A stretch of DNA of 32,000 nucleotides from assembly GCA_025839675.1 (NCBI GenBank), contig CP104013.1, forward strand, positions 5,430,001 through 5,462,000. Direction: 5' to 3'. The position numbers were made by a program, and so were the translations under genes. The notes beneath the pieces were generated by a model, which saw nothing but the letters and a program-made list of their open reading frames with translations, made no database searches and had not been told where the DNA came from. This document shows positions 5,824 through 32,000 of the stretch, one piece after another (the first letter of the stretch is position 1; the number at the start of each line of letters is the position of its first letter). Source of the DNA: Candidatus Lokiarchaeum ossiferum. GTDB lineage: Archaea > Asgardarchaeota > Lokiarchaeia > Sigyniarchaeales > Promethearchaeaceae.

Positions 5824-6060
5824 ATGATTGCAGAGGTACATCCTTTCAAAACAGTTTTTGATGAAGAGTGGGATTATGAGTGGGCGGCAGATTGGAACAA
5901 AGTTTCAGCGATATTTACGACCATTGATGATTTGGAACGTCAGTTTGGAGCACTAGATGTGTCCGTTCTAAGGGAATTAACTCAACGGAAATTGATTTTA
6001 GATTTACAGAAATATGCTTATAGTCTTAGTAAAGTCATTGTTGATAAATATCAAGATTAA
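5824..6060 (+). CDS. Hypothetical small acidic protein
   Basis: 78-aa ORF with an ATG start, followed by a T9 tract. No motif recognised. Confidence 0.4.
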   Translation: MIAEVHPFKTVFDEEWDYEWAADWNKVSAIFTTIDDLERQFGALDVSVLRELTQRKLILDLQKYAYSLSKVIVDKYQD

Positions 6061-6089
6061 TTATTTGGGTGAAATCGCTTTGACTGCCC

Positions 6090-6098
6090 TTTTTTTTT
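6090..6098 (+). terminator. T9 tract downstream of the 5824..6060 ORF
   Basis: ccctttttttttgc lies 30 nt after the stop codon. This is the archaeal oligo-T terminator type. Confidence 0.4.
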
Positions 6099-6159
6099 GC
6101 TGTCCCCTTCGTTCTATTTCATTTTGATGACTTCATCTAATACTGGTCAAAGATTTTAG

Positions 6160-6174
6160 AAAAAAGTAAAAAAA
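6160..6174 (-). terminator. Two oligo-U runs (U7 and U6) downstream of ileS
   Basis: The plus strand reads aaaaaagtaaaaaaa, 13-27 nt beyond the ileS stop at 6187 (minus sense). Confidence 0.4.
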
Positions 6175-6186
6175 TAAAGAAACTCC

Positions 6187-9100
6187 TTAGTTTTTAATAA
6201 AATTGATGCGGATCAACCCCAATTTGTCTTTGGAAATGGATTGTGCACAATATCCGCATTTTCCTTCAGATCCACTTTTAATTGCATTAACCATTTTCTC
6301 TCGAATTACGGCGTAGCATGTACCATTTAAACAAACATTGAAATCTTGTGATATTCCTTCATTAATCGGTTCAGATACTTCTTTGGTTAAATTTAGGGGT
6401 TCAGCTGTCACTTTAGTAGTGATATTTTCCTTTAATTCATTCAAAGTTTCGTAAAGGAAGGGGTGTTCAGTAGACAAAGTTAGAGTTATTGATTCTCCAG
6501 TCTGCAATTTATGTTGCTTTCGTAAGAATTGGATCGTACGCAATAAATCTCGCAATATTCGTTCCTGTTGCAATTCTTTAGAGTCTTGTAAATCCAAATA
6601 TACTATGTATTCTCCTACGTCTTTGAATTTAAAGGTGTCATCAACTTTTTCATCTTTAACGATCGTCAATTCCTTCACATTACTCATTTCTTTGATCAAA
6701 TCTTGGAATGGAATTTCTTCCTTTTGATCTTTGGCTTTTATCAATAATCCTTTGGTAGGCCATCGCAATTTTATCTTATTTTCGGCTTTCAATGAACGTA
6801 CTTCATCAATGATGTGGCGAGTTGTTTGCATTTTGCGTTCAGCATTTTCATCGATTAAATCATCATCAATTTGGGGCCATTTGTCCAAATGAATTGATTC
6901 TCGGGTTTGTGTGGGAAGCATTGGGCGAAACATCTTTTGATATATTTCCTCAGTCAACATTGGATTTACAGGGGCCATAATCAAGCATAATCGGTGTAAA
7001 ACATACCAAAGCACTGCTAATGTATTATATTTGTTTGGATTTTCATTATTTACATCGATATCGTCCCGAATTAGGGAGATGTACCATCGAGACAGATCAT
7101 TTACAATGAACTCTTGGAGACGTGCAGGAATTGAGGGTAACTCGTAATTGTCAAATAGATCTGTCACTTCTTTAATTGTACTGTTCACTTTGGAAACTAT
7201 CCATCTATCTGGCGCGGATAATTTATTAATATCCATGGAATGCTTTTTTGGATCAAAGTTATTTAGCATCATTTTTTCTTGGGCAAATAAATAGGTATTC
7301 CAAAAGGTGTTAAGTACTTTGAAGGTGTCGGTATATTCCTTGTAGTCAAAGTTCATATCTTTTCCTGGAGGGGTAGCCATGACACTGTAGAATCGGAAGT
7401 TTTCTATTCCTTTGATATTAGACCAGCGTTTATCGTCTTTAATATATTTCTTTTGACGTTCTTTTCGATTCTTCTTTGGAGTTTTACTTTCCTTAGTCTT
7501 ATCAAATTTGGATGTGGTCAGAAGGGCTGCTTGTTTCCGTAAATGTTCCTTTTGAGATTCAGTCAAAATTTCCACTTCACCGCGAATAACATCAATTGGT
7601 TGGACTGCATTTCCTAAGGATTTGGACATTTTAACTCCATGTGAATTTACCCATCCATGCATATAACATGCTTTATAATTTTTCCGTTTAGATGAAAGCA
7701 TTGCTGCGCAAATCAATGAGTTGAACCATCCACGGATTTGATCTTTTCCTTCCAAGATGAAATCGGCTGGTTCCCAAGTGTCATAATGTTCATGACCGTC
7801 AACAAATTGTTGGGATGCCCACATCACTGATCCTGAATCTAACCAAACATCTGCTAAATCCGGGACCCGCTTCATGGTTCCTTTAGAACATTTTGGGCAT
7901 TTCCAAGTGACTTTGTCTATGATGGGAACGTGGAGATCTTCTGGACATTCACCCGCTTTTTCTTCCAATTCCTTCATCGATCCGATTACATCCATGTTAT
8001 CACAGGCTTCATCATCACATTGCCAAATGGATAATGGGATACCCCAGATTCTTTGGCGTGATATACACCAATCCCGTAATCCCATCAACCATGATTTAAA
8101 ATTGGTATCACCAGCATATTTTGGGATCCAAAAGATATCTTCATTTTCCTTTAACAATTCGTCACGTAATTTTGATGTTGCGAAGAACCATTGGTCGGTT
8201 GCTCGGTATACCAATTTGGTTTTGCATCTCCAACAGTGAGCGTACTCGTGTGCTATGGGTTCTTCGTGTACTAAAGTTTTTTTTTCTTTCAACATATCGA
8301 TAATTTCTCGATTAACTTCATGTACATACTTTCCTTTAAATAAATCTCCTGCTTCACTCGTGTATTCTCCATTCATATCTACTGGTGAGAAAATTGGTAT
8401 TCCATATTCCATTCCGACTTCAAAATCTTCTGGTCCATGACCTGGAGCTGAATGAACCAATCCTGATCCTCCTGTTTCTTGGACGTATTCTCGAGAAAGG
8501 ACTATTGTATGTACTAATGGTTGTTCTTTTTCTAATTCTGCATGGATGGGGACTTCTTTAGCGAATGGATGAATATATTGTTTACCTTCTAAGTCATAAC
8601 CGGTGTAACGCTCTCCATATTCAAACCCATCTTCTGTTTTTAAGGCCAAATTTAATTTGTTTTGTAATAAATCTGAAGTGGCGGCAATTCCCATGATCCA
8701 ATATTCATCCTTTACCCGCATTTTCACATACTCACTATCTGGATTTGCCATGATGTTTGTATTTGAGATTAGAGTCCAAGGTGTGGTTGTCCATATAACA
8801 TAAAATGTCTTTGGATCTTCAACCGATTGAAATTTGACAAAGATGGCGGTATCGGTGATATCATGATATTCATATTCATGTTTTGCCAAAGCAGTTCCGC
8901 ATCGAGGGCAACAATTTTGGGGGCGATATCCTTTATACAAATAATCATTTTCCCATGCCTTCTTCAATGTCCACCAAATTCCTTGAATATAGGTATTTCT
9001 CAGTGTGATATAGGGATTATCCCAGTTCCAGAAATTGCATCCCAATCTTGAAAATTGCTTATTCATAGTATCAATTTGGCTAACTGCATAATTTCTACAT

Positions 9101-27819: not shown

Positions 27820-29115
27820 GTGCAGAAAAAAAAAATTCATGCTCTTACTTCTATTTTATTATTCATTTTGCCCCTATTTCTTACTACTAATAATTTAGAT
27901 GTCGGGAATGCATTATTTCAAAGAGATGATGTGCCCAATGATTCCTTAAATTTAAAAATGAATTACTCAATTGATTATTCCACAACTAATCCTTCCATTT
28001 TTAAACTTTGGAATGTAGTTATCAATTCTTGGACTTCAAATGATTCTGAAGATTCTATTAGTTTTCAAGAAAACGTTATTTTCAATAATCGAAGTTCTGC
28101 AGAATATTCTGTTCATAGTTTTGATGCTTTTGATATTTATAATAATTCTTATGACTATTATGAACAAGAAATGGAAAATCAAGAGTTTTTAAATTCATTT
28201 CATCTTGAATATCTTTCAAATATGACACTTCAATCTTATTCATGGAATATTCCAGAATCTATAAAGTTAAATGACTATAACACATCTTCTTCATTATATC
28301 AATTTTATACATCTTCTCAACCTTATTGTGAAGCAAACGATACATCTATTATCTCAAAAGCAGAAGAATTGAAAGGTAGCGAAACCTCTTTGGTTTCTAT
28401 TGCTCAAAAAATATTTCTCTATTTGTGTTCGGAAATGACCTATGTTCTTTTAGATGATCCCATCGGAGCAAAAAACGCCTTAAAATCGATGAAAGGGGAT
28501 TGTTCTGAATTTTCTTCTTTAATGGTTGCATTATTACGTGCTTCTGGTATTCCTGCTCGAAAAGTCTTAGGTTTTGCTCTGATTGATGGAGATATTAACA
28601 ATGCTCAACCAAAAAATGATATAAAAGTGGGGGATACATGGTCTTATTCTTATTCAGATCAAAATATTCCAGGTCATGCTTGGGTTCAATATTATGTCCC
28701 GGGGTATGGTTGGATTTCTGCAGATCCTACGTGGGGGCACAGTAATTATGAAAATGGGGCAGAAAATGCATTATTATATTTTAATTCAATTGATTGTGTT
28801 CATATTATAACAACAATCGGAGATTTCTACGGTGAAGGAATTGATCCGGAACTTCTTATATTTGACCGCGATCAATCTGGTATTCCAGAATTTCCTTTTG
28901 TTTATCCCATTGGTAACGCAAGTGCGTTCAATTTTGATTTGAGTATTTCCTTTTATGCTTATAATTTTTCAAAACCCATAGTAAATGATTTTTCTGGGTT
29001 GGGAAATCTCCTTTATCTTGTTTCGTCTTCCTCGCTAATTCTCGTAATCATTCTCATTGTTTATAATAAGCGTAAGAAGAAAAAAAATTATGCCACCTAT
29101 TATAAAAATATTTAA
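27820..29115 (+). CDS. Transglutaminase-like (papain-fold Cys-His-Asp) surface protein with an N-terminal signal/anchor and a C-terminal TM anchor
   Basis: 431 aa. Catalytic core: GDCSEFSSLMVALLRASGIPAR ... GHAWVQYYVPGYGWISADPT. There is a hydrophobic N-terminus, many N-x-S/T sequons, and a C-terminal hydrophobic helix followed by KRKKKK. GTG start. Confidence 0.8.
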   Translation: MQKKKIHALTSILLFILPLFLTTNNLDVGNALFQRDDVPNDSLNLKMNYSIDYSTTNPSIFKLWNVVINSWTSNDSEDSISFQENVIFNNRSSAEYSVHSFDAFDIYNNSYDYYEQEMENQEFLNSFHLEYLSNMTLQSYSWNIPESIKLNDYNTSSSLYQFYTSSQPYCEANDTSIISKAEELKGSETSLVSIAQKIFLYLCSEMTYVLLDDPIGAKNALKSMKGDCSEFSSLMVALLRASGIPARKVLGFALIDGDINNAQPKNDIKVGDTWSYSYSDQNIPGHAWVQYYVPGYGWISADPTWGHSNYENGAENALLYFNSIDCVHIITTIGDFYGEGIDPELLIFDRDQSGIPEFPFVYPIGNASAFNFDLSISFYAYNFSKPIVNDFSGLGNLLYLVSSSSLILVIILIVYNKRKKKKNYATYYKNI

Positions 29116-29167
29116 AGAAGAAGAGGTAACATAGAATTATTCAACAATCTAACTGTGAGGTAAAATC

Positions 29168-29824
29168 TTGGTCCGCATAAATATGTCTGGTGAGTTATTT
29201 TGGAAGATAGTTTTTTATGGAAGTGCAGGAACAGGAAAAACTACCATTATTGATACTTTACATAGAAAGACACTCGAAAATCCGGATTATAATCTCGAAC
29301 CCACCGGTCAAGTCACAAAAATTGCGAAAGCTAGTGGGGCCACGTTGTATTTTGATAGAGGCATTTTTCAATCCAGAATTCAAACAAATATTTTTTATCA
29401 CATTTTCACAGTAGCTGGACAGGAAAATTTAGCTCCTTTACGAAAGAAAATTCTCGATGGTGTTGATGCCATCGCTTTTGTTTTTGACGGGCAAAGATCA
29501 ATGTTAGACCGTAATCTAAAATCTCTTGATGAATTGAAAGAAACTTTGGGTCCCGCACTTATCCATGATATCCCAGTACTTATTTTAATCAATAAACAAG
29601 ATCTTCCCGATTCATTGAAACAAGAAGATGTATTTGAGATATTTTCTCGTCCAAATTTTCCTATATCTCAAAAAGAACTAGAACATCAAAATTTTGTAGG
29701 GTTCTTTGAAACTTGCGCACTTTATTCAAAGGAAATGAATATTTGTTCGAGTTTTATTGAATTAATTGAACAATTGTCTACGGACCCAAAATTGATCCCT
29801 AAACATCTAATCCAAAAAATTTAA
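29168..29824 (+). CDS. MglA-type small GTPase (Ras superfamily)
   Basis: G1 is YGSAGTGKTT. G3 is TVAGQE, with Thr in place of the usual Asp, as in MglA (TxxGQ). G4 is NKQD. ATLYFD and VDAIAFVFD blocks are as in MglA. GAGGT lies 6 nt upstream of TTG 29168 (alternative ATG 29183). Confidence 0.75.
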   Translation: MVRINMSGELFWKIVFYGSAGTGKTTIIDTLHRKTLENPDYNLEPTGQVTKIAKASGATLYFDRGIFQSRIQTNIFYHIFTVAGQENLAPLRKKILDGVDAIAFVFDGQRSMLDRNLKSLDELKETLGPALIHDIPVLILINKQDLPDSLKQEDVFEIFSRPNFPISQKELEHQNFVGFFETCALYSKEMNICSSFIELIEQLSTDPKLIPKHLIQKI

Positions 29825-29831
29825 TCTTCCC

Positions 29832-29846
29832 AGTGTTATTAACACT
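29832..29846. terminator. Short inverted repeat between the convergent GTPase genes
   Basis: agtgtt-att-aacact sits in the 27-nt gap between the stops at 29824 and 29852. It could act as a bidirectional hairpin. Weak. Confidence 0.25.
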
Positions 29847-29851
29847 ATAGA

Positions 29852-31255
29852 TTATAAATAGGTTTCAATCAATGAATTGATTCGATTTTTGAATTCTGGC
29901 ATCAATTGATTTATATTGTTAATTTCAGTATCTTGATTTCTTAATAAACACAAAAGATAGACATCAATGTTATTCAAAGGTAGCTTGTAGAAAGTAATGA
30001 TATCATTGTCCATCTGCCACGTGGCTGTATTATGTTTAAGTAATCGGAACTCAGAAAATGTTTTAAACAAATTTTGAAAATGAGGTGCGGACATTTCTGA
30101 AACTTGACTGGAAACTTTATTTGTCGAGAAATCAGAAAGAATTACACTATTCTCATTGATTAATAAGAGTGCTTGAGCATTAATTTCCTGTGCAAACCAT
30201 TTCAATTGTTCGCGCAAAATCTCCCTATTTGGGGACATGAGCGAAATCCCTTCTGAAAAAGACTTATTGAGACTATAAGCGTTAAAGATTGATGTGTTAA
30301 AAAATTTGACTCGAAAATCCTTGGAATTTTCAAGTATTCGATTTTTAAGCAATTCAATTTTTTTTGTTAACTCATGATCTTCTTTGATATCAGGATCAGC
30401 TTTGTGAAAATTAACAACAATTGGTGGGTGTTGTTTAAAGGATCGAAATATATTTAAAATTTGAAAGAGAAATTCTAAGGCTTCCACATAACGCGTTTCA
30501 TCTCTGATATCAATTAAAAAATTTAATAAATTGGTATCGAAGAGATAAAGATCGGCTTGTTTCAGAAAATTCTGCCGGTATTTTAGCTGTCCGCCCACAT
30601 CCCATTCGAGTAAACTTTGCCCCAACATTTGATCTTGGGAACGTTCGATTCCTTTAGTGGGCTTTATTCCTGTTAGTTCACTATATCGTTGCTTAATAGC
30701 TCTTAGATAACTTGTCTTTCCGCTCGCATCCAAACCAGTAAATAATAATTTCAATTTTCGTGCATTGCTTATCGGTGAATTTACGTTTGAAACAAATTTA
30801 TCCACTTTTTCTAAAAGTTCCACCATAAATTCTTTTGAATCTTTTAGATAATTATCATGAGTTATTTTATCTGCTGTTTCTGAGAAATATATTGATAAAT
30901 CCTTCATATTCTCATATAAGAACGCTGCATGATTTTCATCAACAAGAATTGAAATTGTGGAGGCTTTTGCTTGGCCGCGAGCTTCCTTATCGTGGATAAG
31001 GAAGAAATATGTTAATCCGGTGAGACATAAATCTGGAAATGGTAAGATACCGAAATATTTGATGGAATCAAAAACTTGCCCTTCTTGGTAGATTTGTTCT
31101 CCCATGAGAAGTGAAATAGTTTTCATTGAAATGTTGATCTTATGGATTTCTGACATGTCTTCTGGAAAAGTTACCACGGGGGTGGGACCTTCATACTCAA
31201 AGACGGCAAAAATCAAACCCTTTATTATATTCGTTAACGATATTGCAGTTCCCAA
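29852..31255 (-). CDS. Multidomain GTPase: N-terminal longin-like domain, Arf/Arl-like GTPase domain, C-terminal roadblock-like domain
   Basis: 467 aa. The central domain carries Arf-family signatures: G1 GLDASGKT (Arf: GLDAAGKT), PTKG, and G3 WDVGGQ (identical to Arf). G4 is degenerate (FHKAD). The N-terminal ~130 aa (LIFAVFEYEGPTPVVTFPED...YFGILPFPD...) and C-terminal ~130 aa have alternating beta/alpha patterns suggestive of longin and roadblock folds; that is an inference. TTG start with GAGGGG 6 nt upstream. Confidence 0.7.
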   Translation of the reverse strand: MGTAISLTNIIKGLIFAVFEYEGPTPVVTFPEDMSEIHKINISMKTISLLMGEQIYQEGQVFDSIKYFGILPFPDLCLTGLTYFFLIHDKEARGQAKASTISILVDENHAAFLYENMKDLSIYFSETADKITHDNYLKDSKEFMVELLEKVDKFVSNVNSPISNARKLKLLFTGLDASGKTSYLRAIKQRYSELTGIKPTKGIERSQDQMLGQSLLEWDVGGQLKYRQNFLKQADLYLFDTNLLNFLIDIRDETRYVEALEFLFQILNIFRSFKQHPPIVVNFHKADPDIKEDHELTKKIELLKNRILENSKDFRVKFFNTSIFNAYSLNKSFSEGISLMSPNREILREQLKWFAQEINAQALLLINENSVILSDFSTNKVSSQVSEMSAPHFQNLFKTFSEFRLLKHNTATWQMDNDIITFYKLPLNNIDVYLLCLLRNQDTEINNINQLMPEFKNRINSLIETYL

Positions 31256-31337
31256 TATTACCCCTCAACATTTCAATCTAGAAAATGATCTATGTATCAC
31301 ATTATATTTCCTTCTATTTTATTTTATTTGTATCAAT

Positions 31338-32000
31338 ATGTCAGATGTTGATCGATTATTGAAGGATTTAATTAAGAATCTATACCTTTTATACGAGTTT
31401 GAGAAACCTTCCAATTATCCTATAAATTTTGATTCGGGTTTATCACTCTTAGACACACCTACGAAAGAAAAAAAGAATGAAATATCGAAAAAAAACTCTC
31501 GTAACTTTCAATTGAAGAAACAAACTTCCTCACAAAGCCAAATAAAATTTCAAAAAAGTATGATTCAAAAATTGATGGATAATACTTATAGATTTGTCCC
31601 TGAAAATCGCATCTTTAAGAATTATTTTCACTGTTTTCAATATGTTTCCACGAAGTACTCTATGGAGTCAATCATTGATTCATTTTCTTGGCAAGAATTT
31701 GAAAAATTCATTGTGACTGCTTTAAATCATTATGGTTTTCATGCTTTTCGGACATTTCGGTATACTATCAATGAAAAACGCCACGAAGTGGATATTATCG
31801 CACGTGAAAACCGCAAAATTCTATTTATTGATGCAAAACATTGGAGTTCCCGTACTGTGAATATGGGTGCTTTGAAAAAAGCAGCAGTAGATCAAAAATT
31901 GCGTGCTTTAAATCTAATCACTGATAGGGTTTTATGCGGGAAATTACTTGAAAACTTGCAATATTTACCTCAATCTAAATTTAGATCCTTCCAAATTTTT
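31338..32000 (+). CDS. PD-(D/E)xK restriction-endonuclease-like (Mrr-cat type) domain protein; the 3' end runs off the window
   Basis: It is absent from the ORF track because there is no stop in the window. My translation from ATG 31338 is open for 221 codons. The C-terminal part, SWQEFEKFIVTALNHYGFHAF...HEVDIIARENRKILFIDAKHW, matches the Mrr-like nuclease pattern (W-x-EFE...G...D-[IV]-x-A...[DE]-x-K). Confidence 0.55.
   Translation, partial: MSDVDRLLKDLIKNLYLLYEFEKPSNYPINFDSGLSLLDTPTKEKKNEISKKNSRNFQLKKQTSSQSQIKFQKSMIQKLMDNTYRFVPENRIFKNYFHCFQYVSTKYSMESIIDSFSWQEFEKFIVTALNHYGFHAFRTFRYTINEKRHEVDIIARENRKILFIDAKHWSSRTVNMGALKKAAVDQKLRALNLITDRVLCGKLLENLQYLPQSKFRSFQIF

Follow-up and report, generated by a model that had tools for sequence, protein, structure and literature searches.

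Asgard archaea are already known to encode fusions of Rag-family GTPases, as well as longin domains that resemble FLCN and NPRL2 (Liu et al., 2020 preprint). A survey of the small GTPases of Promethearchaeum syntrophicum MK-D1 (Tran et al. 2024, Commun Biol; PMC10933270) includes one protein, WP_147663355.1, that Supplementary Figure 6 of that paper labels 'LGR' among the Rag-like GTPases. The same study noted that the longin-GTPases of MK-D1 have no switch-I arginine of their own and 'may require GAPs' (GTPase-activating proteins). Here we analyze a gene of this kind from Candidatus Lokiarchaeum ossiferum. It lies at 29852..31255 on the minus strand of a 32,000-nucleotide stretch of contig CP104013.1 (the window), and its reading frame of 467 aa runs from a TTG start to a TAA stop at 29852-29854. 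The product is almost certainly an orthologue of the Lokiarchaeial LGR protein, a Rag-like GTPase built from a longin, a G domain, and a roadblock domain. Its longin domain carries the residues that mark GAP-type longins in eukaryotes, and its gene sits in a conserved block with a second Rag-like GTPase.

The MK-D1 protein is the closest described counterpart. It has the same domain order (471 versus 467 aa), is 54% identical over its full length, and is encoded between the same flanking genes, an Mrr/NERD-like gene upstream and a transglutaminase-like gene downstream. MK-D1 belongs to another genus, and its locus lacks the MglA-like gene that separates the LGR and transglutaminase-like genes in the window. 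An initial annotation of this DNA had noted that longin- and roadblock-GTPase fusions occur in Asgard genomes, and had singled out this three-part arrangement for structural follow-up. That arrangement is not new. The longin-GTPase-roadblock layout is already catalogued in Asgard archaea, since a 54%-identical positional orthologue bears the label 'LGR' in PMC10933270.

The predicted structure contains all three modules. A full-length AlphaFold2 (AF2) model (63-sequence alignment; predicted local distance difference test, pLDDT, 78.7) shows a ββ-α-βββ-αα arrangement at residues 11-157, a Ras-like G domain at 167-340, and an α-ββ-α-βββ-α arrangement at 344-464. In this model, the first is the longin topology and the last is the roadblock topology. 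When the full-length model was compared with the PDB by Foldseek, the G and C-terminal domains aligned together over 294-313 columns with 8yl2 (LokiRagO; TMt 0.85) and with RagA/C and Gtr1/2 (TMt 0.75-0.81). Arf/Arl matches ranked after Rag/Gtr and spanned the G domain only. A PDB sequence search returned two Lokiarchaeal proteins, 8yl2 (E 1.3e-38) and 8zla (E 8.8e-26), with Gtr1/RagA at ~1e-11 (Gtr1 at ~6e-12) and Arf at ~3e-9. On the full protein, Pfam Gtr1_RagA scored 81.2 bits (cut-off 22) over residues 169-382 and model positions 1-219 of 232, a match that reaches beyond the end of the G domain; Arf scored 54.1 bits (cut-off 22.3). The same scan gave a sub-threshold Folliculin match at residues 81-135 and no DENN match. 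NCBIfam yielded a sub-threshold small_GTP match only.

The roadblock domain (residues 344-467; 29855..30226, minus strand) occupies the position of the C-terminal roadblock domain (CRD) of Rag proteins. We assign it from its AF2 topology together with the superposition of both domains on LokiRagO, RagA/C, and Gtr1/2, because the last 127 aa alone matched no Pfam family, not even Robl_LC7. The same evidence supports the Rag-style roadblock that had been proposed for this region, and the AlphaFold and Foldseek comparisons recovered longin and roadblock folds on the two sides of the G domain, so that all three fold assignments of the initial annotation stood up to the check it had set for them. 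The open reading frame at 29852-31255 contains every motif quoted in the initial annotation, namely TFPED (residues 29-33), ILPFPD (70-75), GLDASGKT (174-181), WDVGGQ (218-223), and FHKAD (283-287). The layout is not a product of chance: full-length homologues, each of ~470 aa, number more than 500, and the N-domain is highly conserved.

The G domain (residues 167-340; 30236..30757, minus strand) is identified as a Rag/Arf-type small GTPase by Pfam and by PDB sequence matches. Judged from its motifs (P-loop, Thr200, DxxGQ with Gln223, HKxD, and TSIF), it looks catalytically complete, because both the switch-I Thr200 and Gln223 are invariant. The P-loop (G1), GLDASGKTS at residues 174-182 (30710..30736, minus strand), has invariant G174, L175, G179, K180, and S182. 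The G3 motif, DVGGQ at 219-223 (30587..30601, minus strand), includes the catalytic Gln223, and W218, G222, and Q223 are invariant. The G4 motif, HKAD at 284-287 (30395..30406, minus strand), aligns with HKMD of Gtr1 and with HKFD/HKID of 8yl2/8zla. It had been read at first as degenerate, a view that does not hold: HKAD is the Rag-type HKxD, and among 63 orthologues residue 284 alternates between N (33) and H (29) while K285 and D287 are invariant. G5, TSIF at 321-324 (30284..30295, minus strand), is a Rag-type TSI[WF] motif that aligns with Gtr1 TSIW; T321, S322, and F324 are conserved or invariant. Two arginines near the switches were also recorded. Arg205 (30641-30643, minus strand) lies five residues past the switch-I Thr; all 63 of 63 orthologues have it, and Gtr1 has no counterpart. 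Arg227 (30575-30577, minus strand), within the GGQxxYR of switch II, is kept in 62/63.

This G domain could also be read as that of an Arf-family (ArfR-type) membrane switch. GLDASGKT and WDVGGQ are Arf-like, public annotations call the protein 'ADP-ribosylation factor-like protein', and on the G domain alone the two Pfam families tie, with 58.0 bits for Gtr1_RagA and 55.9 for Arf. The near-exact Arf signatures reported in the initial annotation are thus a fair description. Nevertheless, the longin domain takes the place of the N-terminal amphipathic helix, HKxD at G4 and TSIF at G5 are as in Gtr1/RagA, and the G domain is followed by a roadblock CRD, both of which superpose on Rag/Gtr structures. 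Gtr1_RagA also beats Arf in Pfam on the full protein. We consider an Arf-type switch hard to credit. G4, G5, and the roadblock domain make 'Rag-like' the more fitting label.

The N-terminal longin domain (residues ~8-158; 30782..31234, minus strand) is of the folliculin/NPRL2/SMCR8 type by AF2, Foldseek, and Pfam. A separate AF2 model of residues 1-158 reached a pLDDT of 86.2 and has the ββ-α-βββ-αα order. Its top Foldseek match was 8yqg, the longin domain of a Lokiarchaeota Roadblock-Longin protein (TM 0.72). The next matches were NPRL2 chains (9o5d_D, 9o5a_H, 9v0j_A, and 7t3b_B; E 1e-5), identified as NPRL2 from chain lengths and entries. These were followed by the Lst4 longin, 7mge_C (C9orf72-SMCR8 complex), Npr2 (8adl_S), and FLCN (6nzd_H and 6ulg_L); the identities of chains 8adl_S, 6nzd_H, and 6ulg_L were checked. 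The longin-like N-domain of DENN/folliculin type anticipated at first is borne out by these matches. No SNARE, TRAPP, Mon1/Ccz1, adaptor, or SRX longin was among the top 50 Foldseek matches of the N-domain. Conservation within LGR is highest in the N-domain, where 28 positions are invariant in 63 sequences, and Folliculin (PF11704) was the only Pfam family matched by all 25 N-domains tested (E <= 1; best 4.6e-6).

Recent work identified a GP motif and an arginine as the features that mark FLCN, NPRL2, and SMCR8 as longin GAPs and that also mark a class of Asgard longins (PMC12290439, Traffic 2025). LGR has both. The GP motif is Gly23-Pro24 at the start of longin strand 2 (31184..31189, minus strand). 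The arginine is Arg93 (30977..30979, minus strand), a candidate catalytic arginine finger within the motif D-x-x-A-R-G, in the loop that joins strands 4 and 5. Each is invariant in 63/63 orthologues. With hhalign, query residues 11-34 fell on NPRL2 7-31, placing the GP motif on G20-P21 in a short local match (E 0.062), and query residues 84-107 fell on FLCN 155-179, placing R93 on FLCN R164 in another short local match (E 0.011). The human NPRL2 reference used here agrees with 6ces_N at each of its 380 residues, and the FLCN reference matches 6ulg_L with a single difference outside the region used. The LGR longin carries both hallmarks of the eukaryotic longin GAPs and may have GAP activity.

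The authors of PMC12290439 asked whether ArfR or Rag/Gtr GTPases partner the GAP-type Asgard longins; the terms 'fused' and 'GTPase domain' are absent from the text of that paper. The text of PMC10933270 makes no mention of any GAP-type signature for the LGR longin, and in the literature searched we found no relevant paper on 8yl2, 8zla, 9m28, 8yqg, or 'LokiRag', although the depositors of these structures may have discussed LGR. The GAP-longin signature in LGR and the phylum-wide LGR-RagO synteny described below seem to go unmentioned in that literature.

The same longin type is found beyond LGR. When 1.84 billion representative proteins were searched exhaustively with a profile, only 188 had this longin, in LGR proteins, in fusions with Ras/Rab-like G domains, after another N-terminal domain, in a fusion with a TrmB helix-turn-helix (HTH) domain, and alone. 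Retention of the two features was counted over 148 representative proteins with the LGR longin type: GP is present in 121/135 aligned domains and Arg in ~103/136. Individual cases include GP/Arg longins N-terminal to Ras/Rab-like G domains (P0140 and P0147, ~340-350 aa; Pfam Ras 130-157 bits), one fused to the TrmB HTH domain (P0154, 518 aa), and others that form the C-terminal half of two-domain proteins (P0152 and P0168, ~275-290 aa), possibly roadblock-longin proteins like 8yqg. Given this variety of fusion partners, the GP/Arg longin is a module that has been reused with different partners.

LGR also has a regular neighbor. The protein occurs in at least 136 species-representative genomes of Promethearchaeota (Lokiarchaeia). 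Neighborhoods were counted in the 80 loci retrieved, essentially all from Promethearchaeota, with the loci that have enough flank as denominators. A LokiRagO-type G-roadblock gene lies one to three genes upstream of LGR on the same strand at 48/55 loci. An Mrr/NERD-like gene stands upstream on the opposite strand (63/72), a transglutaminase-like gene lies downstream in convergent orientation (59/69, directly adjacent in 54), and a methyltransferase gene follows further downstream. With LGR taken as the plus strand, the block reads RagO-type (+), Mrr/NERD-like (-), LGR (+), transglutaminase-like (-), methyltransferase (-) in ~80 Promethearchaeota species; examples are the MK-D1 locus (L015, 3922-8645) and positions 27820-32000 of the window. 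The ends of the LGR and transglutaminase-like genes are often within 40 nt of each other or overlap. The window stops at 32000, inside the divergent gene, and the position of the RagO-type gene is known from related loci. In MK-D1, the gene two upstream of the LGR orthologue encodes the protein crystallised as 8yl2 (E 4.5e-221). LGR and RagO are only 31-36% identical, so they are paralogues and not the same protein. The conserved LGR-RagO block suggests a RagA/RagC-like pair.

A second, divergent LGR-like gene is present at some of these loci, just upstream of the RagO gene and on the opposite strand. It is complete in L010 (406-1938, minus strand) and L013 (496-2040, minus strand), where it encodes ~510 aa with ~28-29% identity to the query, and partial in L042 and L059 (39% identity). 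The locus can therefore hold three Rag-like paralogues.

How the modules might work together can be modeled on the known complexes. The roadblock domains of LGR would dimerise in the manner of RagA/C, Gtr1/2, and LokiRagO, so that two G domains lie next to each other. The longins would pair as they do in FLCN-FNIP2, NPRL2-NPRL3, and the Lokiarchaeal longin dimer 8yqg. Arg93, beside Gly23-Pro24, would then be presented as an arginine finger to the nucleotide pocket of a G domain. That pocket could lie in cis or on the other chain of the dimer, or it could belong to the syntenic paralogue of LokiRagO type. LGR would in this way be a Rag-like switch with a built-in GAP, in which longin docking sets the lifetime of the GTP state. 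We give this mechanism, which we infer, slightly less than an even chance. The identity of the protein and the built-in GAP, taken as a whole, make the best explanation of our observations and one that we hold to be moderately probable. A more ambitious version would make LGR a self-contained, ancestor-like circuit of Rag and FLCN/GATOR1, with Arg93 serving an LGR dimer or an LGR-RagO heterodimer; we put this forward tentatively and would not bet on it.

Several observations weigh against a Rag-like switch with its own GAP. The linker between the longin and G domains is 9 residues long (159-166) and has low pLDDT, and Arg93 would have to reach the pocket through it. Many longin modules are GEFs (guanine nucleotide exchange factors) or platforms and not GAPs. 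The query longin scores 21.5 bits against Folliculin PF11704, short of the gathering cut-off of 23.3, and the pairwise statistics of the local FLCN and NPRL2 alignments (E 0.011 and 0.062) are weak. When the N-domain profile was run against PDB sequences (E <= 10), it returned coiled-coil noise only and no FLCN, NPRL2, or SMCR8. For this reason, the link to the GAP longins rests on fold, Pfam, and motifs. The tie between Gtr1_RagA and Arf on the G domain belongs with these points.

The main rival to a built-in GAP is that the longin serves as a GEF, a platform, or an effector-type partner, as in Mon1-Ccz1, TRAPP, DENN, and SRX/SR-beta, with the arginine and the GP motif being structural. In general, longin and roadblock domains act as platforms for GTPases, and the longin regulators known so far are mostly GEFs (PMC3747258, PMC12290439). 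A GEF role was proposed for the Asgard FLCN-like modules (Liu et al.), and the LGR G domain has a weak similarity to Pfam SRPRB. However, the top structural neighbors of the LGR longin are longins from GAP complexes, with SRX, TRAPP, Mon1/Ccz1, and SNARE longins outside the top 50, and both motifs that separate GAP longins from other longins are invariant in LGR. We regard a GEF or platform role as unlikely, though it deserves to be taken seriously.

A simpler proposal is that the longin and roadblock domains are purely oligomerisation modules, as in the LokiRagO homotetramer, and that the N-domain has no catalytic role. The descriptions of 8yl2 as a homotetramer and of 8yqg as a longin dimer fit this, as do the AF2 homodimer models of longin-containing MK-D1 GTPases in PMC10933270, which predict typical roadblock or longin dimer contacts. 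Yet oligomerisation leaves unexplained why Arg93, in a surface loop, and Gly23-Pro24 are invariant across proteins that are only 42% identical, and why the arginine and GP are retained in this longin type whatever the fused partner. A role in oligomerisation only is improbable in our view.

If LGR is a switch with a built-in GAP, the fusion would be 'Rosetta-stone' evidence that Asgard longins of the FLCN/SMCR8/NPRL2 type are GAPs for Rag-like GTPases, and the partnership of longin GAP and Rag would be older than eukaryotes. Confirmation would date the logic of Rag-FLCN/GATOR1 nutrient signalling to before eukaryogenesis. With GP and the arginine present in the LGR longin, a single protein and a single point mutant would suffice to test which GTPase an Asgard longin of the GAP type acts on.

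The start of the gene bears on the GP motif. The public gene call (P0001, 441 aa) begins at GTG/Val27, which affects positions 31177-31255 (minus strand) of the window and omits longin strand 1 together with the invariant Gly23-Pro24. Orthologues align from residue ~1-10 of the 467-aa protein, which supports the TTG start at 31255, and a GAGGGG Shine-Dalgarno-like motif can be read at 31261-31266 (minus strand), 5 nt upstream of that TTG. On these two grounds, the deposited gene probably lacks its first 26 codons. The N-terminal 'MGTAIS' resembles a myristoylation motif; it was set aside as such a motif, not being kept in orthologues.

The LGR gene is monocistronic, because its upstream neighbor is divergent and its downstream neighbor convergent. 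The divergent gene starts at 31338 on the plus strand, 82 nt from the LGR gene across an AT-rich stretch, and runs past the end of the window (32000); positional counterparts of this gene in related loci match Pfam Mrr_cat/NERD weakly. On the other side, the transglutaminase-like gene (27820-29115, plus strand, 431 aa) is followed after a 52-nt gap by the MglA-like gene (29168..29824, plus strand). These two genes look like a small operon. The best solved-structure matches of the MglA-like protein are MglA (3t12, E 7.6e-18), and it has T-V-A-G-Q of the MglA type in place of DxxGQ.

The stop codons of the MglA-like and LGR genes are 27 nt apart, and the initial annotation saw in this convergent arrangement a pairing of interest. 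The neighbor is indeed of MglA type and the distance is correct. A functional pair would also be in keeping with the recurrence of the arrangement in L007, L008, L009, and L012. Among 80 loci, however, only those four have an MglA-like gene separating LGR from the transglutaminase-like gene; all four lie in the clade of 54-70% identity and come from close relatives of Ca. Lokiarchaeum ossiferum. Elsewhere, including in MK-D1, the transglutaminase-like gene directly adjoins LGR (54/69 loci). Convergent genes are not co-transcribed, and the MglA-like gene follows the transglutaminase-like gene on its own strand. Being restricted to one lineage and convergent, the pairing is no evidence of coupling. 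The MglA-like gene looks like a lineage-specific insertion at this locus and not a conserved partner, and we rate a functional pair with LGR as highly improbable.

A few loci deserve comment on their own account. In L083, the LGR orthologue is split into two open reading frames (5896-6669 and 6673-7395), through a stop codon, a frameshift, or an assembly error, and may be a pseudogene. L028 (DATKTW010000091.1) is titled 'Candidatus Nanopelagicaceae bacterium' and has the complete block, from RagO through Mrr, LGR, and transglutaminase to methyltransferase; probably a Lokiarchaeial contig was mis-binned here. The same block, with LGR at 42-45% identity, occurs under Hermod-, Hod-, and Thorarchaeota titles (L024, L031, L049, L056, L063, L067, L069, and L085), and these labels may be unreliable.

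Beyond the MK-D1 orthologue, the solved structure closest to the G domain and roadblock of LGR is LokiRagO (8yl2, 'Homo Tetrameric RagA-like small GTPase from Asgard Lokiarchaeota'), which shares the HKxD form of G4. It has no longin, only a ~40-residue N-terminal tail. LokiRagM (8zla/9m28) is a related Lokiarchaeal Rag structure. The Rag/Gtr proteins themselves (RagA-D, Gtr1/2) have in common with LGR a G domain followed by a roadblock CRD, HKxD, a TSIW-type G5, and the Gtr1_RagA match. They differ in being ~20% identical, in lacking an N-terminal longin, and in having a P-loop unlike the Arf-like one of LGR; their GAPs, FLCN-FNIP and GATOR1, are separate proteins. Arf-family members share the Arf-like P-loop and switch II with LGR. 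Unlike them, LGR has no N-terminal amphipathic helix and is not a single-domain protein. The MglA-MglB system resembles LGR in joining a small GTPase with a module of the roadblock/longin superfamily, MglB being a roadblock GAP. Here the G domain of LGR has DxxGQ where MglA has TxxGQ, and the modules are fused in LGR and separate in Mgl. With the longins of FLCN-FNIP2, GATOR1 (NPRL2-NPRL3), and C9orf72-SMCR8, LGR shares the fold, the GP before strand 2, and the arginine between strands 4 and 5. It has neither the DENN domain of FLCN and SMCR8 nor the NPRL C-terminal domain, and it is thus comparable in the longin module only, not an orthologue of FLCN or NPRL2. What sets LGR apart from the FLCN, GATOR1, and SMCR8 complexes is that its longin is fused directly to the presumed substrate GTPase.

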